A DNA stretch of 64,000 bases, from NCBI GenBank assembly GCA_018818205.1, contig JAHISJ010000002.1:3895-67894 (forward strand), read 5' to 3'. How positions within the stretch are numbered: position 1 is the stretch's first letter; the number at the start of each line of letters is the position of its first letter. The DNA is from Patescibacteria group bacterium (GTDB lineage Bacteria > Patescibacteriota > JABMPQ01 > JAHIRA01). Shown here in pieces: positions 4,014-49,058 of this stretch. A program made the position numbers and the translations under genes. The notes beneath the pieces were generated by a model that had not been told where the DNA came from, did no database searches, and saw only the letters and a list, made by a program, of their open reading frames with translations.

Positions 4014-5834
4014 ATGAAGAAATTTTTTGCGTACGTTGATAAGCATTCAGGGTTCTTTGCAGGGATTTTGCTTACCATTATGGTTCTCCTGTCATTTTTC
4101 AGTATGTATTACGATTCGGCGATAATGGATGAGGTTGCTCATGTCCCTGCAGGATATAGTTATGATAAATACCATGACTATAGGTTAAACCCCGAACATC
4201 CGCCGCTTGCAAAGGCACTTTCCGGTGTACCGCTACTCTTCCAGAAAATGGTGTTTCCGGTAGATCTCCCTGATTGGAGTGAGAAGATCAATGGGCAATG
4301 GGAAGTTGGCTGGAAGTTTTTGTATGAGCGGGGGAATGACCCCGACACTATTTTGCTTTCTTCTCGTATTCCAATGCTCCTGATTATGGTGGTGCTGGGG
4401 ATATACTTGTATCTTTGGACCAAGAAACTCTTTGGGAGAAAAGCCGCGGTACTGGCCATGATACTTTTTGCCTTTTCACCAAATCTTATTGCACATTCTA
4501 GGTTTGTCACCACTGACATTGCGGCAACACTGGGTGTAATGATGGGGCTCTACCACTTTGTAAACTACTTAAAAAAACCCACATGGTCCAACATTCTTAT
4601 TGCAATGGTTGCGCTTTCTGTGGCTCAATTACTTAAATTTTCTTGTTTTGTGCTCTATCCTATGATGGGGCTCATTTTACTGTTTGTACTCTTTTACAAA
4701 AAGAAGCCGGCATCATGGCTCCATTATGTAAGCTCGTTTGTACTTATGTGTTTAGGGAGTTTGGTCATTATCAACCTTGTCTATTTACCGTTTATTTATA
4801 AAATGCCCGTTGAACTGCAGCATGAGACAATCTCATACTATTTTCCTGTGATGGAAACCACAGATGCAAAAGAGTTGGTTGGTCAGTATGGGCAGCAGAT
4901 TATGCATACACTTACCAATAGTCCTATTACACGACCGTTTGCATACTATCTCCTGGGTCTCTTCATGGTGTTTGTTCGGGTAACTAGCGGGAACACAACG
5001 TACTTTCTTGGCGAGACATCAAATCAATCGTGGTGGTATTTTTATCCGGTGGCAATTGCTATAAAAACACCAATCGTTACACTCCTTTTGACGCTTGGCG
5101 CACTCATTTTTTCTGTAGGACTTGGTGTGCGGTTTGGCAAGAAATTGTTTACGGATCTGCCAAAAGGAATATGGAGAAAAACAAAAACCATTTGGAATAG
5201 AAAATTTCAAGCCGTATGGAACACGCTTGATCAGTGGGTGGCCATCTTTGTTATTGTATTGTTTGTGGGAACGGGGATTGTAGGCAATCTCAATATTGGG
5301 CTCAGGCACATGTTTCCTATGTATCCGTTTTGGTTTATGCTTATTGCCGGTGCGTTTGTGCTGATGCATACTATGCTTAAGGGTAAGGTACGTTTTGCAA
5401 GCAATGTTGTTATCTCAATTTTGGTCGTCTTATATGTCGCAACAAACCTCATGGTGTTCCCCCACTATTTGGCTTACTTCAATGAACTAATTGGTGGTCC
5501 ACAGAATGGCTACAAATATATGGTCGATTCTAACCTTGATTGGGGGCAGGATTTACGAAGGCTTACACAGTTTGTAGATGAAAACAATATTGATGAGATT
5601 AAAGTGGATTATTTTGGCGGAGGAGATCCACACTATTATCTCAAAGATAGATACGTGGAATGGCACGCAAACGATGGTAAAACGACCGGATGGATTGCAG
5701 TGTCTGCTACCTATTTTCAAAACAGCAAATACTATTCACGCGTGCGTGGAGAAGAGGATTACTCGTGGCTTGAGGCGTATGAACCAGAGGCTATAATCGG
5801 GCACTCTATCTTGGTTTACAACATCAATAAGTAA
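4014..5834 (+). CDS. GT-C fold membrane glycosyltransferase, PMT_2/ArnT-like (GT39/GT83-type)
   Basis: 606 aa. The N-terminal loop motif MDEVAHVPAGYSY...NPEHPPLAKAL matches the DE and PxxHPPL signatures of PMT/ArnT-family enzymes. Twelve or more TM helices. Confidence 0.65.
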   Translation: MKKFFAYVDKHSGFFAGILLTIMVLLSFFSMYYDSAIMDEVAHVPAGYSYDKYHDYRLNPEHPPLAKALSGVPLLFQKMVFPVDLPDWSEKINGQWEVGWKFLYERGNDPDTILLSSRIPMLLIMVVLGIYLYLWTKKLFGRKAAVLAMILFAFSPNLIAHSRFVTTDIAATLGVMMGLYHFVNYLKKPTWSNILIAMVALSVAQLLKFSCFVLYPMMGLILLFVLFYKKKPASWLHYVSSFVLMCLGSLVIINLVYLPFIYKMPVELQHETISYYFPVMETTDAKELVGQYGQQIMHTLTNSPITRPFAYYLLGLFMVFVRVTSGNTTYFLGETSNQSWWYFYPVAIAIKTPIVTLLLTLGALIFSVGLGVRFGKKLFTDLPKGIWRKTKTIWNRKFQAVWNTLDQWVAIFVIVLFVGTGIVGNLNIGLRHMFPMYPFWFMLIAGAFVLMHTMLKGKVRFASNVVISILVVLYVATNLMVFPHYLAYFNELIGGPQNGYKYMVDSNLDWGQDLRRLTQFVDENNIDEIKVDYFGGGDPHYYLKDRYVEWHANDGKTTGWIAVSATYFQNSKYYSRVRGEEDYSWLEAYEPEAIIGHSILVYNINK

Positions 5835-5835
5835 C

Positions 5836-7122
5836 ATGGATCTTATACTCATCGGCTGTGGCTTACTGCTCTATGTATTTTTTTCGTACTTAAAACCAAA
5901 AATAGCTTTTGCCGTTTTAGGAGCCTCGCTTCCGTTGTATCTCATACGGTTTTCAGTTGCAGGAATTCCTTTTACGGTGCTTGAAGGAATGATTTTGGTG
6001 TTGCTTATAGTGTGCATTGCTCGTTCAATGGTAAAAAAAACGTTAATCAGTCAAGCAAGAGATCTTATTGCTTCGTACAAAACGTTGATAGTGCTCTGTG
6101 CGTTACTGCTCCTCTTTTCAGGAATTGCCGCAGTGTATGCGGTTAACGTAAGTGCGGCACTTGGCATATATAAGGCGTACTTTGTTGAGCCGATCATTGT
6201 GTTGTTCTTGTTTTTAACACTTATACAAAGAAAAAAAGATGTTTTGAATGTTCTTTATGGCATTTCCCTGTCCGTTGGCATAGTCTCGATTACTGCAATT
6301 ATTCAATATTTTTTTGTTATTGGTATTCCAGAAGGGTATATTGAACCAGTCAAGCGTGCAACGTCTTTTTTTCCGTATCCAGCGGCACTCGCATTGTTTT
6401 TGACACCGTTTTTAGTGTTGCTTGTAGTACTTCTATGTAAGAATTTTTTTGAAAGTGTGTGGGCAAAGTATAGTATTGCATGCATGACGCTTCTTGGTAT
6501 TGTTGCTTTGGTTCTCTCGCGGGCAGAAGGAGGCATTGGCGCGCTATTTGTCGTGCTATTTATCTTCGGACTTTTTACTAAGGTGAGATGGTACGTTCTT
6601 ACTGCAGGAGTCGTTGGTGTGTTGCTAACTCTATTTGTGCCGACACTAAGAATGCAAGCAATAGAGATACTTACTTTTCAGGATGTTTCGGGCGAGGTGC
6701 GGTTAGCACTCTGGGAGGGGACAGCAAATCTCATAAAAGCACAGCCTATTAAAGGCGCAGGCCTTGCCTCATTCCCTGAAGTCTATGAGCAATACAAGCT
6801 TGCGCGGCATACAGAGCTTCTAGTATATCCGCACAACATTGTGCTCAATTTTTGGGTAGAAATAGGGCTTTTGGGGTTACTTTCGATTATAGGATTGCTT
6901 GTCTATTTCTTTAATAAAGCAGGAAAAATAATCAAAAGGTGTGCAAAAAAACAGTGGTGTGCAACTCTCAGTAGCGCCTCATTGTTTGCTATGGTTGCAC
7001 TTATTATTTACGGACTGGTTGAAGTACCTTTTTTTAAAAATGATCTCTCTGTGCAGTTTTTTCTTGTTATTGGGCTTGGCGTAATGTGTTTAGTAAAACA
7101 AAAAGAGTGTCAATCCTCTTGA
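5836..7122 (+). CDS. O-antigen ligase-like (Wzy_C/WaaL family) membrane protein
   Basis: Polytopic membrane protein carrying the Wzy_C signature region (LLVYPHNIVLNFWVEIGLLGLL) with the conserved His. Directly follows the GT-C gene. Confidence 0.6.
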   Translation: MDLILIGCGLLLYVFFSYLKPKIAFAVLGASLPLYLIRFSVAGIPFTVLEGMILVLLIVCIARSMVKKTLISQARDLIASYKTLIVLCALLLLFSGIAAVYAVNVSAALGIYKAYFVEPIIVLFLFLTLIQRKKDVLNVLYGISLSVGIVSITAIIQYFFVIGIPEGYIEPVKRATSFFPYPAALALFLTPFLVLLVVLLCKNFFESVWAKYSIACMTLLGIVALVLSRAEGGIGALFVVLFIFGLFTKVRWYVLTAGVVGVLLTLFVPTLRMQAIEILTFQDVSGEVRLALWEGTANLIKAQPIKGAGLASFPEVYEQYKLARHTELLVYPHNIVLNFWVEIGLLGLLSIIGLLVYFFNKAGKIIKRCAKKQWCATLSSASLFAMVALIIYGLVEVPFFKNDLSVQFFLVIGLGVMCLVKQKECQSS

Positions 7123-7183
7123 CTTTAGCAGGTTTTTTGTTAGGATAGGGGCATCTTTTGACCCCATATTCCAAGGAGGAATT

Positions 7184-7657
7184 ATGAATGAAAAAGGATT
7201 CGCAGTAGTAATTAGCGATCAAAAACTAAGCACAACGTTTAGCGAAAAACTTAGGCAATTAGGCTTTAAAATTGTTTCGATTGAGTCTATTTTTGCAACG
7301 CAGTGTGAAAGTGCTTATATCGCTAAAAAAATGCATGAGGTGATAGGCGTATTTGCAGGTAGCATTCATATCTTTTTTTTGAATGCCGCTGGCATGGACT
7401 CAGAATATGCTTTTGAGCGTATCACTACTAGTATTGCGATCTTTCGAAAAAAACTTACCCCGCAGCAGCGTAAAAAAGTTACCTTTACTCTTTGCGACGA
7501 TGATCCCTTAGCAATGGTTGGGTCTTTTAGTCAGATGGGTGTGTTATTGTTAGCCCCTCCTCAAGGTGCGGGTCGCAGCGGTTGCTGTGGAGGAGAACGC
7601 TCAGAAGAAGAGAAAGATCATGAGTGCCAATGTCCTGGAGGGGGCGGGACAAAATAA
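7184..7657 (+). CDS. hypothetical protein with a Cys/Gly-rich C-terminal tail; possible degenerate receiver-like fold
   Basis: 157 aa. The segment FFLNAAGMDSEY weakly resembles the REC DxxMPxMDG region with Asn in place of the phospho-Asp. The tail reads GCCGGERSEEEKDHECQCPGGGG. Confidence 0.4.
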   Translation: MNEKGFAVVISDQKLSTTFSEKLRQLGFKIVSIESIFATQCESAYIAKKMHEVIGVFAGSIHIFFLNAAGMDSEYAFERITTSIAIFRKKLTPQQRKKVTFTLCDDDPLAMVGSFSQMGVLLLAPPQGAGRSGCCGGERSEEEKDHECQCPGGGGTK

Positions 7658-7686
7658 TGTTTAAAAAATACGAAGAACAGTTTGTG

Positions 7687-7714
7687 GCAAGAGAGACCTC
7701 TCTTGCCTTTTTTT
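7687..7714 (+). terminator. rho-independent terminator
   Basis: Hairpin GGCAAGAGAG-ACC-TCTCTTGCC followed by a T7 run. Confidence 0.6.
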
Positions 7715-7739
7715 GTAGCGTGCTCTTGAAAAAAGTACA

Positions 7740-8249
7740 GTGCTATGGTACGTTTATAAGCTTACATTTTTTGAAGGAGGATTCATGAAAAAGAAGGTAA
7801 AAATGTTTATTTTTACACTAGATTCTGTTGAGGCTGAGCTTATCAATCGTGCTGCAGGCAAGCTGTCCATTTCTGTTGGTGGCGTTTTCAATTTAACAGA
7901 TATCCATAGCAAGTATGAAGTTCTTGCACATAAATGTTTTGAAACGTTGCTCTCTGACCCCGACGCATTCTGGATCATTACTATGGAGATGGGATGGACA
8001 TCTAATGGCCTTCTAGCAACGCTGCAAGCGCATAAAAATCAATATGATTGTGTGCGACTTATGTATTATCTTAGCGGTATGCTTTCTGCTGAGATGCGAT
8101 CAAGAGTGCATATTATTCTTATGGATGCAGATGTTGAAGGTATTGATGATGCATTTCTTCCTGATCTTAAACGCACACAAATAGATGAGAAAGGAATTGA
8201 ACCAGTTCTAGGGCAGTTAATTACAGACTTTCTTGAGAATTCTTCTTAA
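7740..8249 (+). CDS. hypothetical protein
   Basis: 169-aa ORF. The real start is probably MKKKVKM at 7785. No family recognised. Its 3' end abuts the IS. Confidence 0.4.
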   Translation: MLWYVYKLTFFEGGFMKKKVKMFIFTLDSVEAELINRAAGKLSISVGGVFNLTDIHSKYEVLAHKCFETLLSDPDAFWIITMEMGWTSNGLLATLQAHKNQYDCVRLMYYLSGMLSAEMRSRVHIILMDADVEGIDDAFLPDLKRTQIDEKGIEPVLGQLITDFLENSS

Positions 8250-9301
8250 GGAACTTCAGAAACACGTATTTTCTTAGAGGCCACACGCTTCATTTGTGGT
8301 AAAGAGCCCAAAATGTTCTCTCTAACCTCTTCTGGCACTTTTAAATAACTCTAGCATCTCATTAGGTGTTTTACCATCCAGACCGCAATGCTCCAGATCA
8401 TTGTACTCGTTGTTCCATCTTCGTATTCTTCTCTTGAGAGATAAAACAGAGTTAAATGTATACCTAGAATAGACCTTCTCCTGATCTTCCCGGTGACTTC
8501 TCTCAACCGTACCATTTTGAGCAGGCTTCCCCGGATCAATGAGATAGTGCACTATGTGGTGCTTTGCACAGAAGCGATCTAGTGCATGAATTCTTTTTAC
8601 CGTCATGTCTGATCTCTTGTTCGTCCCCGTGTAGTAGTTGGTGAATGTAGAGTGATTATCGGTCTTAATGGCATCTATTTTAGAAGGAAACCGATTCATT
8701 ACTTCTTTGAGAAACAGAATGGAGTGATAACTTGATTGTTCATCATAGATCTTTAAGTATCTCCACCTGCTTGCAGTGTCAATGGCTGTATATTGGTAGT
8801 ACTTATGGCCTGCTATTGGTCCTGGAACGTGTTTAACGTCAATCTCGAGCAATTCTCCCGGTTTCCTCTGAGCTTTGATGTACGTGCACCTCACCTTCTT
8901 CTTCCGGTACGTTCTTACCAGTCCTTCCTTCTTGATGATCTTCCCAATGGTTCTGACCGGAACCTTAACGCCTTCTTTATTCAATCTCCAGTTCAGTTTC
9001 TGAGCACAGAGACTCGTTTTCTTACGAAGCGCAATCACCTGTTCTTTAACCGCAATAGATGTTTCATTATGATAGCGTTTTGGTTCAGTTGACTTGGGTT
9101 CTAAACCACTCTCGCCAACCTTTCGGTACACCGAGACCCATCGCTCAAGACTTCTTTTACTGTACGGGCACACCTTAGCGGCATCTACGAGCTTAATCTC
9201 CTTATTCACAATGGGCAAAACCCATCGCAGTCGTTCTTCTCTAATTGTTGTAGACATAGTAATACACATAGTATTCTCAGGAAAGCATATCCTGAGAATA
9301 C
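8233..9301 (-). mobile_element. IS481-family insertion sequence (boundaries approximate)
   Basis: Single DDE transposase ORF. Candidate imperfect terminal repeats are TTCTTGAGAATTC (8233-8245) and GTATTCTCAGGA/TCCTGAGAATAC (9271-9301). Target-site duplications were not resolved. Confidence 0.45.
8322..9269 (-). CDS. IS481-family DDE transposase (N-terminal HTH plus rve integrase core)
   Basis: N-terminal HTH region, catalytic triad context (IDVKH, TDNHSTF, NGTVERSHRE) and a C-terminal basic tail. The start could also be MSTTIREE at 9257. Confidence 0.8.
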   Translation of the reverse strand: MCITMSTTIREERLRWVLPIVNKEIKLVDAAKVCPYSKRSLERWVSVYRKVGESGLEPKSTEPKRYHNETSIAVKEQVIALRKKTSLCAQKLNWRLNKEGVKVPVRTIGKIIKKEGLVRTYRKKKVRCTYIKAQRKPGELLEIDVKHVPGPIAGHKYYQYTAIDTASRWRYLKIYDEQSSYHSILFLKEVMNRFPSKIDAIKTDNHSTFTNYYTGTNKRSDMTVKRIHALDRFCAKHHIVHYLIDPGKPAQNGTVERSHREDQEKVYSRYTFNSVLSLKRRIRRWNNEYNDLEHCGLDGKTPNEMLELFKSARRG

Positions 9302-9333
9302 CGCCATATGTGTGTGCACATTACCGAAATGTC

Positions 9334-9362
9334 TTGACAAAAACAATATCATGTGCTAAAAT
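9334..9362 (+). promoter_or_regulatory. sigma70-like promoter (TTGACA-17-TAAAAT)
   Basis: Consensus -35 and a good -10 with 17-nt spacing, about 75 nt upstream of the RBS/ATG at 9439. Confidence 0.45.
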
Positions 9363-9438
9363 CCCATTTGTTATTGTACTTTCCAGATGCGGTAGTGTCC
9401 ATTGTGGGTGCTGCTGTGAATGGAAAATAGGAGGAATC

Positions 9439-9783
9439 ATGTTAGAAATGATTTTAGGAATTCTAAAAGATTTTTTGTCGATTTTTTACCCCGTTAGACA
9501 GATGTCGATTGTGACCGTATTTAGTTTGATTATGGGACTCGTTTCATTGTGGAAAATCATTCAACAAAAACGTTGGAAGTACCGTGAGAACGGTATTTTA
9601 AAGTCGATTCCAGAAGATTCTCCCGAAGCGTGGGCTACGAAGTCCACTTTGGGAAAAATTGGACGTGAACATGGTGGCCATGTTCAGGGTTTAAAACATG
9701 TTATTAAATCAGAAGGCTTGTTTGGATGGAAAAAAGTTATCGAAGTTACTTATCCTATTCAAGAGAAGGCCGAGCAAAAATAA
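9439..9783 (+). CDS. small membrane protein (hypothetical)
   Basis: ATG at 9439 preceded by AGGAGGAAT. One or two TM helices (IVTVFSLIMGLVSLW). The track ORF 9094..9783 extends upstream through the transposase and is not credible. Confidence 0.5.
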   Translation: MLEMILGILKDFLSIFYPVRQMSIVTVFSLIMGLVSLWKIIQQKRWKYRENGILKSIPEDSPEAWATKSTLGKIGREHGGHVQGLKHVIKSEGLFGWKKVIEVTYPIQEKAEQK

Positions 9784-10030
9784 AGCTCATAGGCCAAAAC
9801 CTCTTTTGTCTTAACCTAACATAAACCTCCTCTCACAAGCTGGGACGAGGTGAAGGGTTAAAGACAAAGACAGGAAGGGGTTTCTCTACACTATTATACA
9901 TTACAAATGAAGCGACCTGTCCGCTTCTCTCCTGTGCCGGTCACGAAGAGGCGTGATCCGTAGAGGAGATATATGATGCTTTGCGCATCGTGCTTTAAAA
10001 AACAAAAAAAGAGCCGTTACCCGGTGTTTC

Positions 10031-12643
10031 TTATACCGATATTTCGGGATTTTCGGTTAAATAAAATAATCCTTGTATCCACTGGCCAAACCTAATAGGA
10101 ATGTTTTTTTGACCTAACTTTAATCCTAAATTGGCAATTAAACTTTGTGGAGCCTGGATGTAGAGATCAAATTGAGCTTCGGGAGTTGCTCTGTACGTAC
10201 GCATGATCTCCTCAAGAATCTGTTCCTCAATATACGTTTGTTCGTGTACGTTCATTAAGAGGCCGTTTCTTGAAAGTGAAAAATTAATTTCCGCTTCTCC
10301 TCCGCGTGCAGCTAGTTGTGTTCTAAGCGTTTCTGCCATATTGCTTCGACGACCAAGCTCAATAATGTATGTTTGGTGAGGATTTTTTGTTTCTTCCTTC
10401 TCTACAGTTACTTTTTCATAAAAACTTCTTTCCTCAATGGCATTAAAATCCGGCCTTTCTTTAATGAGGTTAAGGAGATCATTAACATTTTTCTCGAATT
10501 CCTCTCGTTTCTCACCCTGAAGATCAGTTTTTTTCTCATGTATCAGTACCCAAATCGTTTTAATTTCTTCCGTAGAAAGTTCGCGAGCAATAAACTCAGC
10601 CATGGCGTGTTGTGTTTCTTTGTCTATATCAAACTTTTGGTATGGCGGGTCTATTTTTTCTCGATCAAAAAAGAGAGGATTTGTTTTTGATGCATACGCA
10701 AGCGCGCAGGTTAAGAGATTGCCGTATTGTTCTCCCTGCGAAAAAGCTTCTCTAATGGGTTTTTGTTGCAGGATTTTCTGGAGTTTGTCTGAAAATTCAG
10801 CACCCTCATGTATAACTTTTTCAACTATGAGGTGATCAATAAATGATGACGCGGAGTTTTTCTCCAAAAACTGAAACATCGCTTTGTCTTCAGGCGTTGT
10901 TAACCAAGCAAAAAGTTTTTCAGAAGGAAGGTTAAAATAGGTGTTGCGTTCGGGACAATAGATCTTTTCACCAAAAGATGGATTTTGAAGGAGTTCTAAA
11001 ATGACTTTCTCTTGGAACTCTGGGTTGGCAAGAAGCGTGTCTCTTTCTTCTTTCTCTAAAGAATAAATCAATTTAAGCGCTCGAGCTCTTTGACCGTTTT
11101 CATTATATCTATCGATTAATTCTAAGTCAGTGTAAAGCGTTCCTTCTGTAACGTTTATTTGTGATTCTCTGACTGTTTTTAATGTATCTCCATACATTCC
11201 GGCACTGTAGAGTTCAGGCGAAAGGGACGTGCTTTCTCCGTCAACAAATTGAAGTGCCTTTTCGGGAAAACCATTGTCACCGGTTCCGGGAACAAAAACA
11301 ATGCGTGTGCCTTTAAAGCCTTGAGAAGTAGCAAAGTCGAGTAATTCTTTCTCGCTGAGGTGTTTTTCAGAAAGATACTCGGTTACCAATTCAAAAATTT
11401 CGTTTGGATGAATAGTGGTACCCTCTCTTTTGGGTGTGCCGATAAATTTGTTATGCCCACCGAACTCTTCACTACCTTCTTCTAAAACGATTTTTCCCTT
11501 TAATACTTCTTTTATATTCAAAACCTTTGCAAGTAAAGAAAGATCGATTTTCCCTTGCAGCGATTTGTGCAGTGCAATTTTAACCTGGTAACGTTCTTTT
11601 TGAGGACTCTTGCCAATAAGGACCGTTACGTCGGAAAGACGTCTACCTTCCTCGTCTTGGAGTTGGTTAATATTGCCAAAAACACCTTTTGTTTCAACGT
11701 GCGTAGCATCAAAGAGCGCAACACGTAGTCCCGTTGCTGTTTCATTCATCCTAACGAGTTCCAAGCCTTTTAATTCCTCGTTTCTTGTTTCAGTTTCAGC
11801 TTGCATGGCTTCAAGATAGGCAGAGAAACGGTCTTGTTTTTCTGCAAAAAGCAGTTGTGCTTCCTTAGAGTCTGATGCCGGCATATCGAGAGGAATATTG
11901 TCAGTAAACTCCAGTCCTGTCTCTTGAATATACGTAAAAAGATCATAGACTTCATTTAAAAGGGGTTCAAGGTTCTCCGGTGATATCGTTTTTCCTTTTG
12001 GCGTGTATTTTTTGATGATTTGATCAACAATTTGAATAAATCCACGACCGCTACGTTTCATTTTATGCTTAAATGTACGTGTTTCTTCACTTTGCTGGAT
12101 AAGTAAGGCTATATTTTGATATTCGGGTTTTGATCCGGTAAGAGCAAAGAGTTGAGCTGTCGCGGTAAATTTCTGCGTGCCGGTATGGGTAATAGTGCCC
12201 TGTTTAGCGTTGTATTGTTCGGGGGTAACCCCTTCTTCTTCTAAAAACTGGATTCTTGTATCAATGGATCCAGTTTCAAGGCCAACGCCGGCTAGTTGTT
12301 TTTTAAGCGTCTCAAGCTCCATTAGAGTGGGAACTTTCTCTCCCTGAACTTCAATTGCAAGAACGTCAGGGGAAGTAAGGTCATCTTTCTTGGTTCTTTG
12401 TTTAACCTCAATGGGTGTTTGCGCGGAAATATACCCTAAGTCGCGAGCAAGACAATAGCTTGCCAGCGTATCCATATCTATGTGGCCTAAAATAGCCCTG
12501 GAGAATGATTCACCTTCTTTCTTTGCAAAGTGTTCTGGAGAAAGAGTAATACCTTTTAGCTCAGGAGGAACTTCTCTATCCTTTTTTGTTTCCTTGAAAG
12601 CAGGTTCTTGTCTATGTAAAAATTCAGACATAGTATTAAACAA
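10031..12643 (-). CDS. large cytoplasmic orphan protein (870 aa, unknown function)
   Basis: Long uninterrupted ORF with no TM segments and no confidently recognisable domain. Weak DHH/DHHA1-like strings only (HIDMDTLAS near the N-terminus, FGGHNKFIG mid-protein). Confidence 0.6.
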   Translation of the reverse strand: MFNTMSEFLHRQEPAFKETKKDREVPPELKGITLSPEHFAKKEGESFSRAILGHIDMDTLASYCLARDLGYISAQTPIEVKQRTKKDDLTSPDVLAIEVQGEKVPTLMELETLKKQLAGVGLETGSIDTRIQFLEEEGVTPEQYNAKQGTITHTGTQKFTATAQLFALTGSKPEYQNIALLIQQSEETRTFKHKMKRSGRGFIQIVDQIIKKYTPKGKTISPENLEPLLNEVYDLFTYIQETGLEFTDNIPLDMPASDSKEAQLLFAEKQDRFSAYLEAMQAETETRNEELKGLELVRMNETATGLRVALFDATHVETKGVFGNINQLQDEEGRRLSDVTVLIGKSPQKERYQVKIALHKSLQGKIDLSLLAKVLNIKEVLKGKIVLEEGSEEFGGHNKFIGTPKREGTTIHPNEIFELVTEYLSEKHLSEKELLDFATSQGFKGTRIVFVPGTGDNGFPEKALQFVDGESTSLSPELYSAGMYGDTLKTVRESQINVTEGTLYTDLELIDRYNENGQRARALKLIYSLEKEERDTLLANPEFQEKVILELLQNPSFGEKIYCPERNTYFNLPSEKLFAWLTTPEDKAMFQFLEKNSASSFIDHLIVEKVIHEGAEFSDKLQKILQQKPIREAFSQGEQYGNLLTCALAYASKTNPLFFDREKIDPPYQKFDIDKETQHAMAEFIARELSTEEIKTIWVLIHEKKTDLQGEKREEFEKNVNDLLNLIKERPDFNAIEERSFYEKVTVEKEETKNPHQTYIIELGRRSNMAETLRTQLAARGGEAEINFSLSRNGLLMNVHEQTYIEEQILEEIMRTYRATPEAQFDLYIQAPQSLIANLGLKLGQKNIPIRFGQWIQGLFYLTENPEISV

Positions 12644-12787: not shown

Positions 12788-13330
12788 TTGGAGGAAAAAA
12801 AGATGAAAACCGCCGTTTTTCTTGTTATTTTTTTGAACTTTTTTGCCGCTGAGGCTTCCTATGCCAAAGTTTCTATAAGAGTAGAGAAAAAACCCTCTCG
12901 AGTTTCTTTGGGATATAAAAAACTTTTAACCAAACAAGAACAAGAGTTCCTTATTACTGACGTAATAGCATGTATAAGAAGAGGCATGAAAATTTTTGGA
13001 GTAAAGGAAAGTAAACATCCAAGATATGGATTTAGTATTAGATATGCTCTTGAAGTTAAAAATGACAAAAAAGGACTATATTTAAGCGTAGATTTTTCTA
13101 CGTATAGCTCAAAAAAAGCATTAAGAGCAAATATGTGGAGCTTCTTTATTATCGAGTCAAAACGATATTTTCCACAACATCGTGTTGATTTTAGACAAGT
13201 AATGACATATAAGCTTTTTATGCTGTTCAATTTTATCGCATTGCGCTCAAAGAAGTTTAAAACACGCTGTTCAGATTTGTGCAAATGTCCAAAAGGATAT
13301 TCTTGCAAGATGACGGAGTGTGTTAAATAG
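12788..13330 (+). CDS. secreted small protein with Cys-rich C-terminus (hypothetical)
   Basis: Signal-peptide-like N-terminus (MKTAVFLVIFLNFFAAEASYA, probable start 12803). C-terminal CSDLCKCPKGYSCKMTEC. Upstream TTGACT-16/17-TATGCT promoter. Confidence 0.5.
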   Translation: MEEKKMKTAVFLVIFLNFFAAEASYAKVSIRVEKKPSRVSLGYKKLLTKQEQEFLITDVIACIRRGMKIFGVKESKHPRYGFSIRYALEVKNDKKGLYLSVDFSTYSSKKALRANMWSFFIIESKRYFPQHRVDFRQVMTYKLFMLFNFIALRSKKFKTRCSDLCKCPKGYSCKMTECVK

Positions 13331-27400: not shown

Positions 27401-27816
<416 letters not shown>

Positions 27817-27961
27817 TCTTTTAATAGGGAAAAAGTCTAGCCCTTTCTGTCTTTTATCAACTTTTTGTGTACAGTAAATAGGACATAAAAAGTGAAGATA
27901 GAAAGTGCACAGTCTTTTGGGCTAGAAGCCAGAAAGGGCTAGATTGATGGTACCTATTGAA
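27817..27961 (+). rRNA. rrs: 16S ribosomal RNA, expanded V3 hairpin segment (about 70 nt longer than typical)
   Basis: The GTAAAG-to-GTGCCAGC interval is about 178 nt, against roughly 105 nt in E. coli. Perfect 15-bp complementary arms GTCTAGCCCTTTCTG (27835-27849) and CAGAAAGGGCTAGAT (27932-27946) close an AT-rich interior. Confidence 0.9.
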
Positions 27962-28987
<1,026 letters not shown>

Positions 28988-29554: not shown

Positions 29555-29631
29555 TGGGCGATTAGCTCAGTTGGTTAGAGCGCGTCACTGATAATGACGA
29601 GGTCCCAGGTTCAAATCCTGGATCGCCCACC
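29555..29631 (+). tRNA. tRNA-Ile (anticodon GAT), CCA encoded
   Basis: GGGCGATTAGCTCAGTTGGTTAGAGCGCGTCACTGATAATGACGAGGTCCCAGGTTCAAATCCTGGATCGCCCACCA. Cloverleaf with anticodon loop CTGATAA; this is the canonical rRNA-spacer tRNA. Confidence 0.95.
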
Positions 29632-29742
29632 ATTCGACAGGCTCATGGTGTTTCACCACGTTTAGGACATTTGAAAATCGCAGTACCATTTTTACCAGTA
29701 CGATTGATTTACTGATGAATCAACCTCACTGGCAAACGTGTT

Positions 29743-35579: not shown

Positions 35580-35655
35580 GGGCCCGTAGCTCAGTTGGTA
35601 GAGCACTTGTTTTGCATACAAGGGGTCAGCGGTTCGAATCCGCTCGGGTCCACCA
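35580..35655 (+). tRNA. tRNA-Ala (anticodon TGC), CCA encoded
   Basis: GGGCCCGTAGCTCAGTTGGTAGAGCACTTGTTTTGCATACAAGGGGTCAGCGGTTCGAATCCGCTCGGGTCCACCA. G3:U70 identity pair, anticodon loop TTTGCAT; this is the canonical rRNA-spacer tRNA. Confidence 0.95.
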
Positions 35656-43219: not shown

Positions 43220-45157
43220 ATGTATATATCTGATATCGCGCGAAAATTGCGTATTAGGGACAAGGACTTGCGGCAGAAATTAAAAGGCATGGGCTATAAT
43301 TTTAAACCTCGTGTTCGTACTCTTGATGATGCCACTGCACGGGAAATTATTAGCAAACTTGAGGACACCAAAGAGCCTGCAAAGAAGGAAGAAGAAACCC
43401 TGCCAACAGTGAGCGAAGTTGAAATCCCTGAGACAGTCACGGTCGGAGAATTCGCAGAAAAGACAGGAAAGCCAGCGTCAGAAGTGATTCAAGATCTAAT
43501 GAAAAATGGTATCATGGCTGCCATTAATCAAGAGATCGATTTTGACACCGCAACGTTGCTTGCAGAAGGGTATGGTATTACCGTTAAAAAATTTGTTGAC
43601 GAGCAAGTTCAAGACAGAGAAAAAGGCATCAGACAAAAAATCAAAGATGAGGTAGAGAAAAGTGGTGGGAAAAGTGTCAAAATGCGCTCCCCGGTAGTAA
43701 CAGTGATGGGACATGTTGATCATGGAAAAACAACACTACTCGATGCAATCAGAGATACTAATGTGACTTCAAGCGAATCGGGTGGTATTACGCAACATAT
43801 TGGTGCGTACCAGGTAAAAGAAAAAGGTCGCGTGATAACGTTTTTAGATACGCCAGGGCATGAAGCATTTTCTGCCATGCGGGCAAGAGGTGCGAGAGTA
43901 ACTGACATTGCTATTTTGTTAGTTGCGGCAGATGATGGAGTAAAACCACAAACCAAAGAAGCGCTTGATCTTATTAAGAAAGAAAAAGTACCGTTTATTG
44001 TTGCTATAAACAAGATTGATAAGCCCGGGGCAAATATTGAACGGGTAAAAAAAGAACTCGGTGATTTAGAGGTGGTACCTGAAGACTGGGGTGGCGATAC
44101 GGTAATGGTAGAAGTGTCTGCAAAAAAGAAACTCAATATTGACAATCTACTCGAAATGATCTTGCTGGTTGCCGATGTTGAGGAGCTCAAAGCGGAGTTT
44201 GATGTTCCAGCAGTGGGAACAATAATCGAGCAGCACAAAGATGCCAGACGTGGTGCAACCGCAACAGTATTGGTCCAAAATGGAACGTTAAAAGTGGGCG
44301 ACTTTGTAACGGTGGGCGGTGTTATGGGAACTATCAGGTCCATGGAGAACTATCAAGGGAAAAAAGTCGATCATGCGAAGCCGTCAACGCCTGTTCAAAT
44401 CCTTGGGCTAGAATCGCTTCCGGCAGTAGGTGACATTTTGCATGTTGAAGAAGATAAGGCAAAGGCTAAAGAGAAGATAAACAGACTTAAAAAGAAGGCA
44501 AAGTCCTCTAAGAGAAAAGTAGACGACAGCGGCAAAGAAATAAAAAAACTGAACATACTTATTAAAGCAGATGTGCAAGGCTCGCTTGAAGCTATTTTAG
44601 GCTCGCTTGATAAAATCGAGAGTGACAGAGTAGCAATCGACGTGGTTGACTACGGAGTTGGAAAAATAACAGAATCAGACATTATGCTGGTAAGTTCATC
44701 AAATGCTAAAGTGTATCTTTTTAGAACAGCGCCAACATCAATTGCACGAGTTCTTGCGAGAGACAAAAAGATTATCTTAAATGAATACTCGGTTATTTAC
44801 GAGCTCATTGATGCAATTAAGACGGCATTAACTGAACTTATTGAACCGGAAGTCGTCGAAAAAACAATTGGATCCCTTGAGATTTTAAAGATTTTTAGAA
44901 CAGAAAAGGGAAAAATGATCATAGGTGGAAAAGTAGTAAAAGGTAAAATTATTAAAGACTCAAGAGTTGTGGTAACCCGTGGTGAGGAGGAGCTCGGCGA
45001 CGGGTCAATATCAAATATTCAAAGGGGCCAGTCTCCCGTTGATACGGTGGCCCAAGGAGAAGAATGTGGAATGAAGTATGAGGGTAAGGTTCGCATAAAG
45101 ACCGGAGACATCCTTACTATTATAGAGCGCAAAGTGATTAAACATACAATAAACTAG
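43220..45157 (+). CDS. infB: translation initiation factor IF-2 (short N-terminal form)
   Basis: G domain GHVDHGKTTLLD, DTPGHEAF, NKIDK, and the C-terminal beta-barrel domains. Confidence 0.95.
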   Translation: MYISDIARKLRIRDKDLRQKLKGMGYNFKPRVRTLDDATAREIISKLEDTKEPAKKEEETLPTVSEVEIPETVTVGEFAEKTGKPASEVIQDLMKNGIMAAINQEIDFDTATLLAEGYGITVKKFVDEQVQDREKGIRQKIKDEVEKSGGKSVKMRSPVVTVMGHVDHGKTTLLDAIRDTNVTSSESGGITQHIGAYQVKEKGRVITFLDTPGHEAFSAMRARGARVTDIAILLVAADDGVKPQTKEALDLIKKEKVPFIVAINKIDKPGANIERVKKELGDLEVVPEDWGGDTVMVEVSAKKKLNIDNLLEMILLVADVEELKAEFDVPAVGTIIEQHKDARRGATATVLVQNGTLKVGDFVTVGGVMGTIRSMENYQGKKVDHAKPSTPVQILGLESLPAVGDILHVEEDKAKAKEKINRLKKKAKSSKRKVDDSGKEIKKLNILIKADVQGSLEAILGSLDKIESDRVAIDVVDYGVGKITESDIMLVSSSNAKVYLFRTAPTSIARVLARDKKIILNEYSVIYELIDAIKTALTELIEPEVVEKTIGSLEILKIFRTEKGKMIIGGKVVKGKIIKDSRVVVTRGEEELGDGSISNIQRGQSPVDTVAQGEECGMKYEGKVRIKTGDILTIIERKVIKHTIN

Positions 45158-45158
45158 C

Positions 45159-45506
45159 ATGTCACGTTCAGACAAAGTAAATAGTCTTATTAAGCGTGAA
45201 CTTGCAGCGCTTATACCACAAGAGATTGAACTGCCAAAAGGATGTATTGTAACGGTGTCTGAGGTTGAAGCTTCCTTAGATGTGAGGCATGCACGAGCGT
45301 ATATAAGCGTGATGCCCAAAGACAAGGAAGAGGATGTTATGGAACTTCTTGGTACACATATTTACGATATACAGCAAAACCTAAACAAAAAACTCGTTAT
45401 GCGACATGTCCCAAAGATCAGGTTTATGATTGATCATAGAGAGGAACACGCAGCGCGTATAGAAGAGATTATTAGCAGTGAGTATCAAGACGATGGCAAT
45501 AAGTGA
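45159..45506 (+). CDS. rbfA: ribosome-binding factor A
   Basis: RVNSLIKRELAALI...HVPKIRF KH-like RbfA signature, directly after infB. Confidence 0.9.
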   Translation: MSRSDKVNSLIKRELAALIPQEIELPKGCIVTVSEVEASLDVRHARAYISVMPKDKEEDVMELLGTHIYDIQQNLNKKLVMRHVPKIRFMIDHREEHAARIEEIISSEYQDDGNK

Positions 45507-46464
45507 AGTGTTATCTAATAGATTTCGGTATTTGGTTTCAAAGAGCAAATCTATTGTGCTTGTTTCCCACAGAAAGCCCGACGGAGATACTGTTGGTTCA
45601 ATGCTTGGGCTCGCGCTCGCGCTCACTGGTGAAGGAAAGAACGTTTCCACTTTTTCGTCAGATCCCCTTACAGCGCAGCTTACCATTTTACCCTCTGCTC
45701 ATAGAGTAAAGAATACAGCTGACTTTGTTGCTGGTGATTATGATTTAGTTATTGCGCTTGATTGTGGTGATTATAGCCAGATGGGACTTTCCGTTGAGCA
45801 AGATAGACTGCCCCTTATTATAAATATTGATCACCACGGGACGGAATGCTTTGGTGATTTAAATATTGTTGATACAAAGGCGTCATCAACTGCAGAAATT
45901 GTTCATGTGCTTTTAAAAAAACTCCATATCCCTATTTCAAAAAATATTGCGACGTGCTTTCTTGCCGGTATTATGCAAGACACAGACAACTTTAAAAATC
46001 CAAATACAACCACCCAAACACTTGAAACGACGTCATACTTACTCTCTAGAGGTGCGAACTTCAAAAAATTAGGGAGACATTTTAATCATAGTAAGTCGCT
46101 CAGTAGTTTAAAACTTTGGGGCAAGATTTTGGCTCGCATGAGACGACATCCTCAGTTGAATGTGGTTTCAACATTTATTACCAACCAAGAGATAGTAGAA
46201 TCTAACTCATCGTCTGAGGATATTGAAGGAGTGGCAAACTTTTTAAACAGTATTCCAGACGTAAAAGCATCATGTGTGCTTACCGAGATCGAAAAAGACG
46301 AGATTAAGGGAAGCTTACGGACTCTTGACGAGTCGGTTGATGTATCAAAGATCGCTTCCTTTTTTGGAGGTGGTGGGCACAAAAAGGCCGCAGGATTTCG
46401 ACTTAAAGGGCGCATTGTAATGTATAACAACGCGTGGCACGTTAAAAGTACAAAGCTAGCATAA
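45478..46464 (+). CDS. nrnA: DHH/DHHA1 phosphoesterase (NrnA-like nanoRNase / pAp phosphatase)
   Basis: SHRKPDGDTVGS (motif I), LDCGD, NIDHH (motif III), GGGGHKKAAG (DHHA1). Confidence 0.88.
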   Translation: MSIKTMAISEVLSNRFRYLVSKSKSIVLVSHRKPDGDTVGSMLGLALALTGEGKNVSTFSSDPLTAQLTILPSAHRVKNTADFVAGDYDLVIALDCGDYSQMGLSVEQDRLPLIINIDHHGTECFGDLNIVDTKASSTAEIVHVLLKKLHIPISKNIATCFLAGIMQDTDNFKNPNTTTQTLETTSYLLSRGANFKKLGRHFNHSKSLSSLKLWGKILARMRRHPQLNVVSTFITNQEIVESNSSSEDIEGVANFLNSIPDVKASCVLTEIEKDEIKGSLRTLDESVDVSKIASFFGGGGHKKAAGFRLKGRIVMYNNAWHVKSTKLA

Positions 46465-46467
46465 TCT

Positions 46468-47268
46468 ATGACATCTTTTTTTGTCGAATATATTGAAGGA
46501 TTTAAAGCGTATTTTGTACAGCGTACGTTTTTTGATCATGTATTACTTATTGTTGATATTGGTGTTGTTGCGTTGCTTATTTATTATGCACTCGTGTTTA
46601 TTAGAGGCACAAAAGCATCAAAAATTGTGTATGGTATTGTACTGCTTTTAGGCGTTGCATTGGTTGGACAACTTTTGCAACTAGAAACGTTAAACTGGGT
46701 GCTCAAATATGTTGCAACTATTGTGGCGATAGCAATTCCTGTAGTGTTTCAACCGGAGCTGAGACGTGGGTTAGAGAAGCTTGGGAGAACAAGACTTATT
46801 AGTCGGACATCCTTTCTTTCTGACAGAAAACTTGCTACGTCAATTCAAGAACTTATTAAAGCACTACGTGTATTTAAAGAAAATCACGTTGGTGCATTGA
46901 TTGTACTCCAACGAGAGACGGGGCTTAGTGAGTACGTTGAACAAGGAGTGCCGATTAATGGTCTTTTGAGCTCTAAACTACTCATGAATATCTTTTTTCC
47001 AAACTCACCACTCCACGATGGAGCCGTTATTGTGAAGGGCGATAACATTCTCTCTGCCGCGTCAGTGCTCCCTCTTGCTGAGGGGCGAGAAACATATACG
47101 TATGGAACACGGCATAGAGCAGCGATTGGTATAACCGAGGTTAGTGACGCAGTCGCAATAGTTGTTTCGGAAGAACGTGGTACGATTGCACTTGTGTATG
47201 ATGGAAAGGTTGATGATACCATTGCGATTCCAGAGCTTGAAAACAAGCTTATAACTCTTTTGAAATGA
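46468..47268 (+). CDS. cdaA: diadenylate cyclase CdaA (membrane-anchored DAC domain)
   Basis: Three N-terminal TM helices. DAC motifs HDGAVIV and TRHRAAIGITEVSDA. Confidence 0.92.
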   Translation: MTSFFVEYIEGFKAYFVQRTFFDHVLLIVDIGVVALLIYYALVFIRGTKASKIVYGIVLLLGVALVGQLLQLETLNWVLKYVATIVAIAIPVVFQPELRRGLEKLGRTRLISRTSFLSDRKLATSIQELIKALRVFKENHVGALIVLQRETGLSEYVEQGVPINGLLSSKLLMNIFFPNSPLHDGAVIVKGDNILSAASVLPLAEGRETYTYGTRHRAAIGITEVSDAVAIVVSEERGTIALVYDGKVDDTIAIPELENKLITLLK

Positions 47269-48467
47269 AAAAGAAATTCCTTTCAAGCAATCTAGGACTT
47301 AAGCTCATTGCAATCGTTATTGCAATCTTTTTGTGGTTTTATGTGGCAAACGATGGATATCGTGTCGATTTTTTGGATTCAGAAGTTACCATTGAAGCGT
47401 TTAACGTGGCTGAAAGCAAAGCGCTTGCTGAAAATCTTGGTGAGGCACAGGTTAAAGTACGTGCGCCTCTCTCAACATGGTCACGTATTACCGATGATAC
47501 ATTTTCAGCATATGTCGATGCGAAGGGGCTTCAAGCAGGGGAATACACTCTCCCAGTGAAAGTCGTTTCAGAAGATCCTACAGTCCAAGTTCTAGAAACT
47601 GAACCACAAGAAGTACGGGTAGTTATTGATAGCGTAGAATCTGAAAAACGTGATATACGACCAAAAGGAGAAGGTACACCGGGAGAAGGGTATGTTCAAG
47701 AAGAACCCTCAGTAACTGAGACGTCCGCAATGGTCTCTGGTGCCAAAAGAAATGTAGAAAATGTTGCAGAAGTTATTGCACCGGTTGCCGTTGATGGTGC
47801 CATGAGTGACGTAACACAAACCGTTGATCTTGAGGCGGTAGACAGCGAGGGAAATAGAGTAGAGTCAGTTTCCATTTCTCCAAAAACGGTAGAAGTAACC
47901 GTTCCCGTTCACAAAGAAGAAGGGGTTAAAACTGTGGGCGTAAAGGCAAAGACTAAAGGGTCGCCACCGCAGGGGTATTGGATTTCTGACATTAAAATGT
48001 CACCAAGCTCTGTTGCCATTGAAGGCCCGGAAGAGGTGTTAAGCAATGTTGGTTTTGTTGAGACACAATCAATAGATGTATCATCATTTAAAGGCGATGT
48101 TACACAAGAAGTGGCGCTTGATGTTCCAGAGGATATATCTTTAGTAGGAAGTGATACCGTATCAGTGACGGTCAAAGTTAAAAGCGAGGAAGTAGCCCGA
48201 GACATTGAAAAACGTCCAACATTTAGAAACATGCCGGCGGGACAGCACATAACAAGCATGACTCCAGAAAACGTTGTACTGGTTATTGAAGGCCCTGCTG
48301 ATGTGATAAATACGTTTGATCTTAAGACTATGGCCGTTGACGTTGATCTTTCAGGTAAAAAACCCGGAACCTACACCTTGCCAATCCAAAAAGAAATAGT
48401 TACACTTCCCTCAGGCGTGTCGCTCAAAGAAATCGAGACCAAAGAAATAAGAATTGTTATTGAATAA
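47265..48467 (+). CDS. cdaR: CdaA regulatory protein CdaR (YbbR-like repeats)
   Basis: N-terminal TM anchor followed by repeated YbbR-like beta domains. Overlaps the cdaA stop. Confidence 0.8.
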   Translation: MKKKFLSSNLGLKLIAIVIAIFLWFYVANDGYRVDFLDSEVTIEAFNVAESKALAENLGEAQVKVRAPLSTWSRITDDTFSAYVDAKGLQAGEYTLPVKVVSEDPTVQVLETEPQEVRVVIDSVESEKRDIRPKGEGTPGEGYVQEEPSVTETSAMVSGAKRNVENVAEVIAPVAVDGAMSDVTQTVDLEAVDSEGNRVESVSISPKTVEVTVPVHKEEGVKTVGVKAKTKGSPPQGYWISDIKMSPSSVAIEGPEEVLSNVGFVETQSIDVSSFKGDVTQEVALDVPEDISLVGSDTVSVTVKVKSEEVARDIEKRPTFRNMPAGQHITSMTPENVVLVIEGPADVINTFDLKTMAVDVDLSGKKPGTYTLPIQKEIVTLPSGVSLKEIETKEIRIVIE

Positions 48468-48482
48468 TTAACGTACAAAAAA

Positions 48483-49058
48483 ATGAATCTTATTCCCACA
48501 GTTATAGAGAAATCAACACACGGTGAACGTGCATATGATATTTACTCGAGACTTCTTAAAGACAGAATTATCTTTTTAGGCGGTCCAGTAGATGATCATA
48601 TTGCAAACACCGTTATTGCACAGCTTCTCTTTTTGGAAAGTGAAGACAAAGCAAAGGATATTAAACTGTACATTAATTCTCCGGGCGGATCCGTTACGGC
48701 GGGACTTGCGATTTATGATACTATGCAGTACGTAACGTCTGACGTATCAACTATTTGTGTTGGTCTTGCGGCATCAATGGGAGCGGTGCTTCTAGCTGCC
48801 GGAGCAAAAGGAAAAAGACTGACCCTGCCGCATAGCGAAGTCATGATTCATCAGGTTATGGGTGGTGCAGAAGGACAGGCAACTGACATTGAAATTTCCG
48901 CAAAACATATTTTAAAGACCAAAGAAGTATTAAACAAACTTCTTTCAAAACATACCGGGCAAACAATAAAGAGGGTTGAAAAGGACTCGGACAGAGATTA
49001 TTATATGTCTTCAGTTGAGGCAAAAGAGTATGGTATTATTGATCAGATTGTAAAATAA
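48483..49058 (+). CDS. clpP: ATP-dependent Clp protease proteolytic subunit ClpP
   Basis: Catalytic GLAASMG (Ser), MIHQV (His) and D. N-terminal [11 protein letters not shown]. Confidence 0.95.

Follow-up and report, generated by a model that had tools for sequence, protein, structure and literature searches.

Enzymes of the DHH/DHHA1 superfamily degrade small nucleotides, among them cyclic di-AMP (c-di-AMP) and pApA, cyclic tetra-adenylate (cA4; the enzyme MAD) and S-adenosylmethionine-AMP (SAM-AMP; the enzyme NrN) (PMC8284326, PMC10600005, PMC7824862). The closest described systems include stand-alone phosphodiesterases of two domains joined by a linker (NrnA, CnpB/Rv2837c, Pde2/DhhP, PggH, TmPDE and archaeal PAP phosphatase) and GdpP (YybT), a c-di-AMP phosphodiesterase with the architecture transmembrane (TM)-PAS-degenerate GGDEF-DHH/DHHA1. 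Here we consider a large protein encoded in a 64,000-nucleotide stretch of the genome of a Patescibacteria group bacterium (contig JAHISJ010000002.1 of assembly GCA_018818205.1, positions 3,895 to 67,894; hereafter the window, in whose numbering positions are given). Patescibacteria have tiny genomes and many unannotated large proteins. The protein in question, 866 residues long and the product of gene KKH43_00185, belongs to a conserved family of Patescibacteria (candidate phyla radiation, CPR), in that every named taxon carrying it is Patescibacteria, and its structure models mark it as a divergent DHH/DHHA1 relative that is unrecognisable by sequence and has a new domain combination. Our overall reading, which we put forward tentatively, is that of a sensor-coupled phosphoesterase of nucleotide-messenger or short-oligonucleotide turnover.

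The protein family and its predicted fold

The mechanical open reading frame (ORF) runs over 10031-12643 on the minus strand, with 870 codons from a TTG start, and NCBI annotates the gene at 10031..12631 (-), with the stop codon at 10031-10033 and an ATG at 12631. This ATG lies four codons inside the TTG frame, yields an N-terminus beginning MSE, matching the M-[S/P]-E with which all homologs start, and has a TATAAT-like box ~30 nt upstream. It is likely the true start, and because the NCBI annotation and all homologs begin at its equivalent, with that box in place, the 866-aa numbering is adopted. The protein is acidic (140 Asp plus Glu against 106 Lys plus Arg). The sequence-only reading had described a large cytoplasmic ORF free of TM segments and Walker motifs, and this holds good: there is no Walker A motif, and Kyte-Doolittle hydropathy, taken over 19 residues, peaks at 0.98, which leaves no TM segment. 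In G+C content, GC3 and relative codon usage the gene resembles the rest of the window (ranking 8th among the 25 genes of at least 300 codons). The notion that the ORF is spurious, or is decaying within an accessory patch next to an insertion sequence (IS), to which the missing family annotation, the TTG start of the mechanical call and the unannotated small ORFs around the gene might lend some color, is effectively ruled out by full-length homologs at 30-54% identity with invariant motifs, a confident 866-residue model, typical codons and an intact frame. The non-coding artefact that the sequence-only reading had thought conceivable, should homologs be missing and codons atypical, thus falls away; with high confidence, the full-length homologs and typical codon usage establish a real, coding and native-looking gene.

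Relatives were sought by a word-indexed search of 5.8 billion proteins and by an exhaustive HMMER search of 1.84 billion cluster representatives. The former found only 4-5 (at 54%, 52%, 36% and 30% identity), to which word-indexed searches with profiles added a single member; the latter returned 34 cluster representatives at E<=1e-3, nearly all of 840-960 aa, which are metagenomic singletons without names. The relative at 30% is a paralog from the same assembly, as it shares the KKH43 locus-tag prefix, and the one species genome with the family recovered from GTDB, in a search seeded with one alignment, is another Patescibacteria metagenome-assembled genome. With the 866-aa protein as query, Pfam gave nothing significant (no DHH or DHHA1 match at E<=1, and no PAS or GGDEF domain), PADLOC nothing beyond short stretches at a best E of 0.024-0.039, none significant, and sequence searches of the PDB, made with the protein and with the family, nothing significant either. 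The word "orphan" therefore remains apt as far as Pfam, PADLOC, PDB sequences and the handful of word-indexed relatives go, but does not survive the exhaustive search. Alignment of 33 members, at 15-54% identity to the query and the basis of all conservation counts below, leaves very few invariant columns, and these are active-site-like. In two syntenic loci, L003 and L014, each with rpsF-ssb-rpsR upstream of the large gene and a small DHH-like gene downstream, the large proteins are only ~23% identical, compared with 41% for SSB and 36% for the small partner, and by this comparison the large family appears to evolve unusually fast. It is a previously unrecognised, fast-evolving family of about 850-900 aa, and one of roughly 34 clusters that escapes sequence-only annotation entirely.

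Structures were modeled by AlphaFold2 without templates, with a mean confidence (predicted local distance difference test, pLDDT) of 73.9 from five sequences and of 84.9, at a predicted TM-score (pTM) of 0.66, from the 33-sequence alignment; Foldseek was run against the PDB with both models and against BFVD, a viral library. Every PDB match with E<1e-3, for both models, is a DHH/DHHA1 protein. For the better model these include archaeal PAP phosphatase (8a8k, 2.5e-5), RecJ2 (7yik, 1.6e-4), mycobacterial NrnA (4ls9, 1.7e-4) and CnpB/Rv2837c (5cet and 5jju, ~8e-4), and RecJ follows at 6e-3. The best TM-scores on the target belong to the dinucleotide-specific (pGpG) enzyme PggH (7d62, 4.4e-4; TM 0.45-0.49 normalised to target). 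Bacteroides fragilis Nrn (3w5w) and Cdc45 are also among the matches, as are the C-Ala/DHHA1 domains of AlaRS (3g98, 2zvf), which match the DHHA1-like domain. In BFVD the best named matches are DHH phosphohydrolases, from Klosneuvirus (7e-7) and then from Lausannevirus, Marseillevirus and a Bacillus phage. On the strength of these models, the N-terminal 420 residues very probably adopt a DHH/DHHA1 fold. The domain map, all of it on the minus strand, begins with a DHH-like domain at residues ~40-190 (12062..12514), which carries a helical insertion at ~100-145 and is drawn from model secondary structure and Foldseek. A long helical linker (residues 198-286; 11774..12040) separates it from a DHHA1-like domain (residues 291-421; 11369..11761), assigned by model, Foldseek and alignment and including D308, conserved in 31 of 33 members. 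Beyond this catalytic module the model shows a small alpha/beta domain with no fold assignment (residues 427-500; 11132..11353), an all-helical domain of the highest model confidence with weak ARM/HEAT-like Foldseek matches (residues 502-735; 10427..11128) and a C-terminal alpha/beta domain of beta-alpha-beta type (residues 742-859; 10055..10408), which Foldseek and Pfam mark as SAVED/CARF-like.

The conserved residues fall in the canonical DHH order and on the expected elements, namely just past beta1, where beta3 ends and within the loop of DHHA1. The motif I equivalent, G49-H-I-D52-M-D54-T55 ("GHIDMDT"; 12467..12487), has G49, D52 and D54 in all 33 members; in the model, D52 and D54 directly follow the strand at 45-48 and precede the helix at 53-64, which places a D-x-D just after beta1, as in DHH motif I. 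The motif II equivalent is E94 (12350..12352; 33/33), at the end of a beta-strand, where Glu replaces the canonical Asp, and that of motif IV is E182 in "SEETRTF" (12086..12088; Glu in 28, Asp in 5), both equivalences being drawn from order and secondary structure rather than from residue-level structural alignment. As local strings, "SEETRTF" resembles the "GDTGRF" of NrnA, and the paralog has "TDTSG"; authentic NrnA-type sequences for these comparisons came from PDB alignments. At the motif III position, alignment puts G145-T-I-T-H149-T (12182..12199) where the canonical D-H-H would stand; across the family the consensus reads G-N-[FIY]-x-[N/H], and residue 149 is Asn in 18, His in 12 and Thr in 3 members. 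The DHHA1 signature, F390-G-G-H393-x3-I-G-T-P-x3-G404-T405 (11417..11464), here FGGHNKFIGTPKREGT (residues 390-405), keeps H393 and G404 in all members, G391 and G392 in 31-32, Ser or Thr at position 405 in all, and Phe or Tyr at 390; outside these motifs, A157 is conserved in 32. With its invariant residues in canonical order on the expected elements, the family appears to combine the DHH/DHHA1 fold with most of the catalytic constellation, without the D-H-H triad. The motif I and GGH strings had already been noticed in the sequence-only reading and were there called far from convincing; they turn out to be family-invariant, and the first matches of the models, in the PDB and BFVD alike, are DHH/DHHA1 proteins, so that the tentative hint was right.

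For the C-terminus, Foldseek returned a series of SAVED proteins: Cap4 (7yib, 7yia), CalpL (9eyi, 9eyj), SAVED-CHAT (8tl0), 3TM-SAVED (9wq3) and a viral SAVED ring nuclease (9r8s), over 122-143 columns at a root mean square deviation of 3.5-5 A and a match probability of 0.97-1.0. When the isolated C-terminal segments of the 33 members were searched, SAVED was the only Pfam family matched by more than one (2 of 33, best E 0.014), and for that reason the signal is placed in residues ~742-859; with full-length members, Pfam SAVED (PF18145) was reached by 1 of 33 (E 0.0058), below threshold. From the domain size (~120 residues) and the TM-scores, about one CARF-like lobe would be present, of the two fused lobes of SAVED. 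The conserved motifs of this region are E-I-G-R761 (Arg in 31 of 33) and I-x-I-x3-G/Q-x-P828 (Pro in 28 of 33). Taken together, we consider a SAVED/CARF-like C-terminus somewhat probable on these model comparisons.

Proposed activity, its setting and competing readings

In the mechanism that we favor, the N-terminal 420 residues would be a highly divergent DHH/DHHA1 phosphoesterase module that keeps the metal- and phosphate-binding set (D-x-D, E94, E182, G-G-H) with D-H-H changed to N/T-x-x-H/N, and the helical linker and the helical domain of ~230 residues would join this module to the C-terminal CARF/SAVED-like Rossmannoid domain. The bond cleaved would be a phosphodiester or phosphomonoester of a small nucleotide, such as a linear dinucleotide or nanoRNA, pAp, or a cyclic di- or oligonucleotide, and the C-terminal domain would bind a nucleotide ligand that gates or targets the hydrolysis. 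The invariance of the acidic residues and the GGH leads us to propose a phosphoesterase that depends on metal and has a small nucleotide as its substrate, and it is the domain architecture that suggests nucleotide binding at the C-terminus as the means of controlling or directing it. Such a protein would be a functional counterpart of GdpP and would follow the logic of that enzyme and of SAVED-effector fusions. Judged by its residues, the protein could quite possibly be catalytically active on a nucleotide or oligonucleotide, although we would stop short of calling this probable.

The organism itself offers a setting for such an enzyme. The window holds a complete c-di-AMP module within a housekeeping string, infB-rbfA-[canonical DHH/DHHA1]-cdaA-cdaR-clpP (43220-49058; infB to cdaR, 43220-48467), in which a canonical DHH/DHHA1 phosphoesterase of 328 aa (45478-46464; DHH at aa 118, GGGH at aa 298) is followed after 4 bp by cdaA (46468-47268; DAC, 137 bits) and then by cdaR/YbbR (47265-48467; YbbR, 115 bits). 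The position of the canonical gene immediately upstream of cdaA suggests that it encodes a dedicated c-di-AMP/pApA phosphodiesterase. Genomic context was surveyed at 12 distinct homolog loci, up to 8 kb to either side and less at contig ends. In one of these (L001), the paralog from the same assembly (P0004, 901 aa) stands at the end of a packed PBP1A-YceD-CdAMP_rec(DarA/PstA)-paralog string (4121-11845) whose reading frames overlap, with a gap of 25 bp from CdAMP_rec (86.5 bits) to the paralog; ~800 bp downstream of the paralog, on the opposite strand, lies a homolog of Csx3, a ring-nuclease family (28.1 bits, cutoff 21). From the cdaA/cdaR module and the CdAMP_rec gene, the organism makes c-di-AMP and has a DarA-type receptor in addition to its canonical NrnA/DhhP-type enzyme; the 866-aa protein and the paralog come on top of that enzyme as further, divergent proteins of DHH fold. 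Many bacteria require c-di-AMP, whether always or under certain conditions. Turnover of c-di-AMP, with that of pApA, would be the most plausible pathway for the large protein in this organism, though we think it rather unlikely that this particular pathway is the right one. A broader and equally speculative proposal is that a SAVED/CARF-type sensor, hitherto known from anti-phage systems, may here serve a CPR housekeeping circuit, as part of a DHH-fold phosphodiesterase that is gated by a cyclic nucleotide or senses its product and whose active site has been re-invented, controlling c-di-AMP or another, possibly unknown messenger, perhaps together with the small DHH-like protein described below.

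A number of results weigh against a sensor-coupled phosphoesterase and have to be set beside it. At the sequence level, none of the 33 members matched Pfam PF01368 (DHH) or PF02272 (DHHA1) at E<=0.01, and the family, whole or as separate domains, gave no significant hhalign match to an NrnA-type profile (probability 0.1-0.4%; profile of four PDB sequences, later with the window's canonical DHH protein added), though the best local segments fell on motif I and GGGH. The same canonical protein, as a positive control, scores 65 and 41 bits with Pfam DHH and DHHA1. With the PDB sequence searches empty as well, the match to a characterised superfamily, which the sequence-only reading would have taken as contradicting its orphan, is clear at the level of the fold and absent at that of sequence; the family is best described, on its models, as a fold-level DHH/DHHA1 match without sequence-level membership. 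The DHH fold can be non-catalytic, Cdc45 being an example. The D-H-H triad is missing from all 33 members, the otherwise common Asn146 is Thr in the protein under study, and in NrN the triad is essential, since D85A/H86A/H87A abolished function (PMC10600005). The SAVED matches have weak E-values (0.04-0.2) and cover about one lobe, with query coordinates that Foldseek does not give. Finally, the connection to c-di-AMP comes from one paralog locus, the other 11 having mostly housekeeping or unannotated neighbors, and next to cdaA the genome is already equipped with a canonical enzyme of the DHH/DHHA1 kind.

Among the main rivals, the loss of the D-H-H triad suggests a non-catalytic adaptor, a catalytically dead scaffold of DHH/DHHA1 fold in which the conserved residues bind metal, nucleotide or nucleic acid and the protein acts as a receptor. 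We hold this to be unlikely but worth taking seriously: the replacement of the triad by N-x-x-[N/H] is family-wide, Pfam sees neither DHH nor DHHA1, Cdc45 and AlaRS C-Ala domains are among the structural matches, and a large helical domain with a sensor-like C-terminus would suit an adaptor. Against it, the four acidic positions and the GGH are invariant at an overall identity of 15-18%, at the positions that define the geometry of the DHH site, and position 149 is still occupied by His or Asn, either of which could coordinate a metal. Inactive versions of the DHH fold, Cdc45 among them, are as a rule said to have lost these acidic and GGH residues. A RecJ- or NrnA-like exonuclease of DNA repair, DNA replication or RNA decay, acting on single-stranded DNA, RNA 5′ ends or nanoRNA, with the C-terminal domains as modules for protein or nucleic-acid interaction, seems to us less likely again. 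RecJ2 and RecJ are among the top structural matches, and genes of DNA and RNA metabolism do turn up at the homolog loci (rpsF-ssb(-rpsR) in L003 and L014; RNase HII in L001 and L009; PolX in L009; DnaE in L015; DEAD helicases in L005, L009 and L015; DciA in L005), but none of them adjoins the large gene with any regularity, and small genomes are densely packed with genes of this kind. Moreover, no OB-fold or other RecJ accessory domain was detected in the large protein, its C-terminal domain is best matched by SAVED sensors, and the best TM-scores on target go to PggH, which is specific for dinucleotides.

The least probable of the functional alternatives, in our judgment an improbable one, places the protein in an anti-phage system related to CBASS, type III CRISPR or Thoeris, either as its effector or as an enzyme that clears its signal; a cyclic oligonucleotide would be recognised by the SAVED-like domain, and either this signal or nucleotides of the cell would be broken down by the DHH module. 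Effectors of this type typically carry SAVED domains, the DHH enzymes NrN and MAD serve type III CRISPR (PMC10600005, PMC8284326), the paralog has a homolog of the Csx3 ring nuclease in its vicinity, the member P0009 in L007 is flanked by a TIR_2 gene and an AAA_14/DUF4143 ATPase, and evolution is fast, with ~23% identity between the L003 and L014 large proteins against 36-41% for their syntenic neighbors. Set against this are the lack of any PADLOC match and of any CD-NTase/SMODS, Cas10 or other cyclase in the 12 loci, neighbors that are largely housekeeping, native codon usage, IS adjacency unique to the window, and the fact that a genome this small has two paralogs, of which one belongs to a string of cell-wall and c-di-AMP genes.

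Neighboring genes and the insertion sequence

The gene adjoins the only IS element of the window, as had been said of it: a transposase of rve/HTH_32/rve_3 type (8322-9269, minus strand; Pfam scan) is the only one among ~60 window ORFs scanned, has no second copy in the window and has the most atypical codon usage of the window's genes. Two ORFs of 315 aa were considered as further IS copies, but the one at 30180 proved to encode a GT2 glycosyltransferase and the one at 49377 a DDAH-like enzyme. Candidate IS ends are offered by an inverted repeat of 12 nt without mismatch (8286-8297 and 9903-9914), which would enclose the transposase and a 114-aa membrane ORF (9439-9783); a hairpin with a 13-bp stem lies at 9270-9302, and the IS region overall spans 8286-9914. 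Three small ORFs flank the gene and the IS (7184-8249 and 12788-13330), with no Pfam family and no copy beside any homolog; of these, the 157-aa ORF has an unusual Cys/Gly-rich tail (…GCCGGERSEEEKDHECQCPGGGGTK), and the 180-aa ORF a signal-peptide-like N-terminus and a Cys-rich C-terminus.

None of the 12 homolog loci has a transposase or IS adjoining the large gene, and no CRISPR gene was found near family members at the loci examined. Nor was a CD-NTase/SMODS or Cas10 cyclase found within up to 8 kb at those loci or in the window, and the neighbors across them are mostly housekeeping or unannotated. When ORFs of the homolog loci were compared with those of the window, nothing matched except the large gene itself, and therefore conserved partners are to be seen neither in the Cys-rich secreted ORF (12788-13330) nor in the membrane ORF of 114 aa or the IS. 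Two suggestions of the sequence-only reading are accordingly not borne out, namely the co-occurrence of homologs with the Cys-rich or the membrane protein, neither of which has a counterpart at any homolog locus, and a defence or interaction system beside a mobile element, given the absence of PADLOC matches and of a cyclase or IS at the 12 loci, and the native codons. Hence the large gene is most likely not a defence gene brought in by the neighboring IS.

What does recur is an unannotated small DHH-like protein of 280-400 aa, convergent with and downstream of the large gene in 5 of the 12 loci (copies, all (-): L003 10583-11545 and 13880-14953, L005 4146-5345, L008 9032-9871, L009 10901-11899 and L014 13138-14073). 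It carries the strings "DHHG", "D-A-D" and "GWGGR..GGSPRG..P-EE", and its C-terminal motif mirrors the "FGGH..IGTPKR..P-E" of the large family. Identity between the copies of L003 and L014 is 36% (E 4e-57), the 357-aa copy of L003 matches that of L005 at E 3e-16, and hhalign aligns the small protein with the large family over the linker/DHHA1 region (E 5.5e-4, probability 30%). By these likenesses it may be a partner or a stand-alone cousin of the large family. No copy is present in the window, and displacement of a conserved downstream partner by the IS finds no support, as no remnant of the small DHH-like protein or of the recurrent membrane protein is found there. A PDB profile search with the small-partner alignment gave as its sole match a WD40 repeat artefact, and a 301-aa convergent gene in L012 was rejected as a homolog of the small partner.

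Other features of the loci can be noted for the record. The recurrent membrane protein, small and N-terminally anchored, occurs near three members (L001 12650-13231(-), L005 5872-6603(-), L012 204-656(-)); its copies match one another at E 1e-11 to 1e-20, and it has no window counterpart. In L007 (5500-11206), the AAA_14/DUF4143 ATPase ends 23 bp before P0009, which is followed by a 216-aa unknown gene and then the TIR_2-domain gene, and a 44%-identical DUF4143 ATPase (L015 16389-17522) lies ~6 kb from P0014. In the window itself, the 16S rRNA (27401-28986) is followed by tRNA-Ile (29556-29632) and tRNA-Ala (35580-35655), between which lie ~6 kb of genes for glycosyltransferases, aminotransferases and methyltransferases; the window has no 23S rRNA at all, and the rRNA operon is therefore split.

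Comparison with described enzymes and sensors

A fold can now be assigned to the 866-aa protein, along with a candidate active site and a candidate sensor domain, and this opens it to experiment. Were it active, the DHH/DHHA1 superfamily would extend to enzymes that lack the name-giving DHH triad. In the literature we found no description of a DHH/DHHA1-SAVED fusion and none of a CPR-specific c-di-AMP phosphodiesterase; by that literature the protein would be the first DHH/DHHA1-SAVED-like fusion, tying a sensor fold of the defence type to ordinary nucleotide signaling.

Its best structural matches are the stand-alone DHH/DHHA1 phosphodiesterases, of which the window has a canonical member of its own (45478-46464). 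They share with it the linker-joined two-domain fold and the order of the D-x-D, the acidic positions putatively equivalent to motifs II and IV and the G-G-H loop, but the large family has no detectable sequence homology to them, has N/T-x-x-H/N in place of D-H-H and Glu rather than Asp at motif II, and reads "FGGH-x3-IG[ST]P-x3-G[ST]" where the stand-alone enzymes read "GGGH-x2-A[AS]G". It also has a helical insertion of ~45 residues in the DHH domain and ~440 extra residues at the C-terminus. GdpP likewise has sensor domains fused to DHH/DHHA1, and the organism has the c-di-AMP signaling in which GdpP acts; however, where GdpP has an N-terminal PAS/GGDEF, the large protein would have a SAVED/CARF-like sensor at its C-terminus; it is also soluble, without TM segments, and its catalytic motifs are divergent. 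NrN and MAD are, for SAM-AMP and cA4, respectively, DHH/DHHA1 enzymes that clear nucleotide second messengers (PMC10600005, PMC8284326), and they differ in being type III CRISPR-encoded, in keeping D-H-H and in having no SAVED/CARF domain. With the SAVED effectors and ring nucleases (Cap4, CalpL, SAVED-CHAT, 3TM-SAVED and 9r8s), the C-terminal ~120 residues of the model share a superposition over part of the SAVED domain, and the proposed architecture of enzyme plus sensor is alike, whereas the large family would have only about one CARF-like lobe, lies far below threshold for Pfam SAVED and has no CD-NTase or Cas10 partner. Lastly, Cdc45 and the C-Ala domain of AlaRS show the same fold in non-catalytic form, without the DHH signature; unlike them, the large family retains the invariant acidic residues and the GGH.

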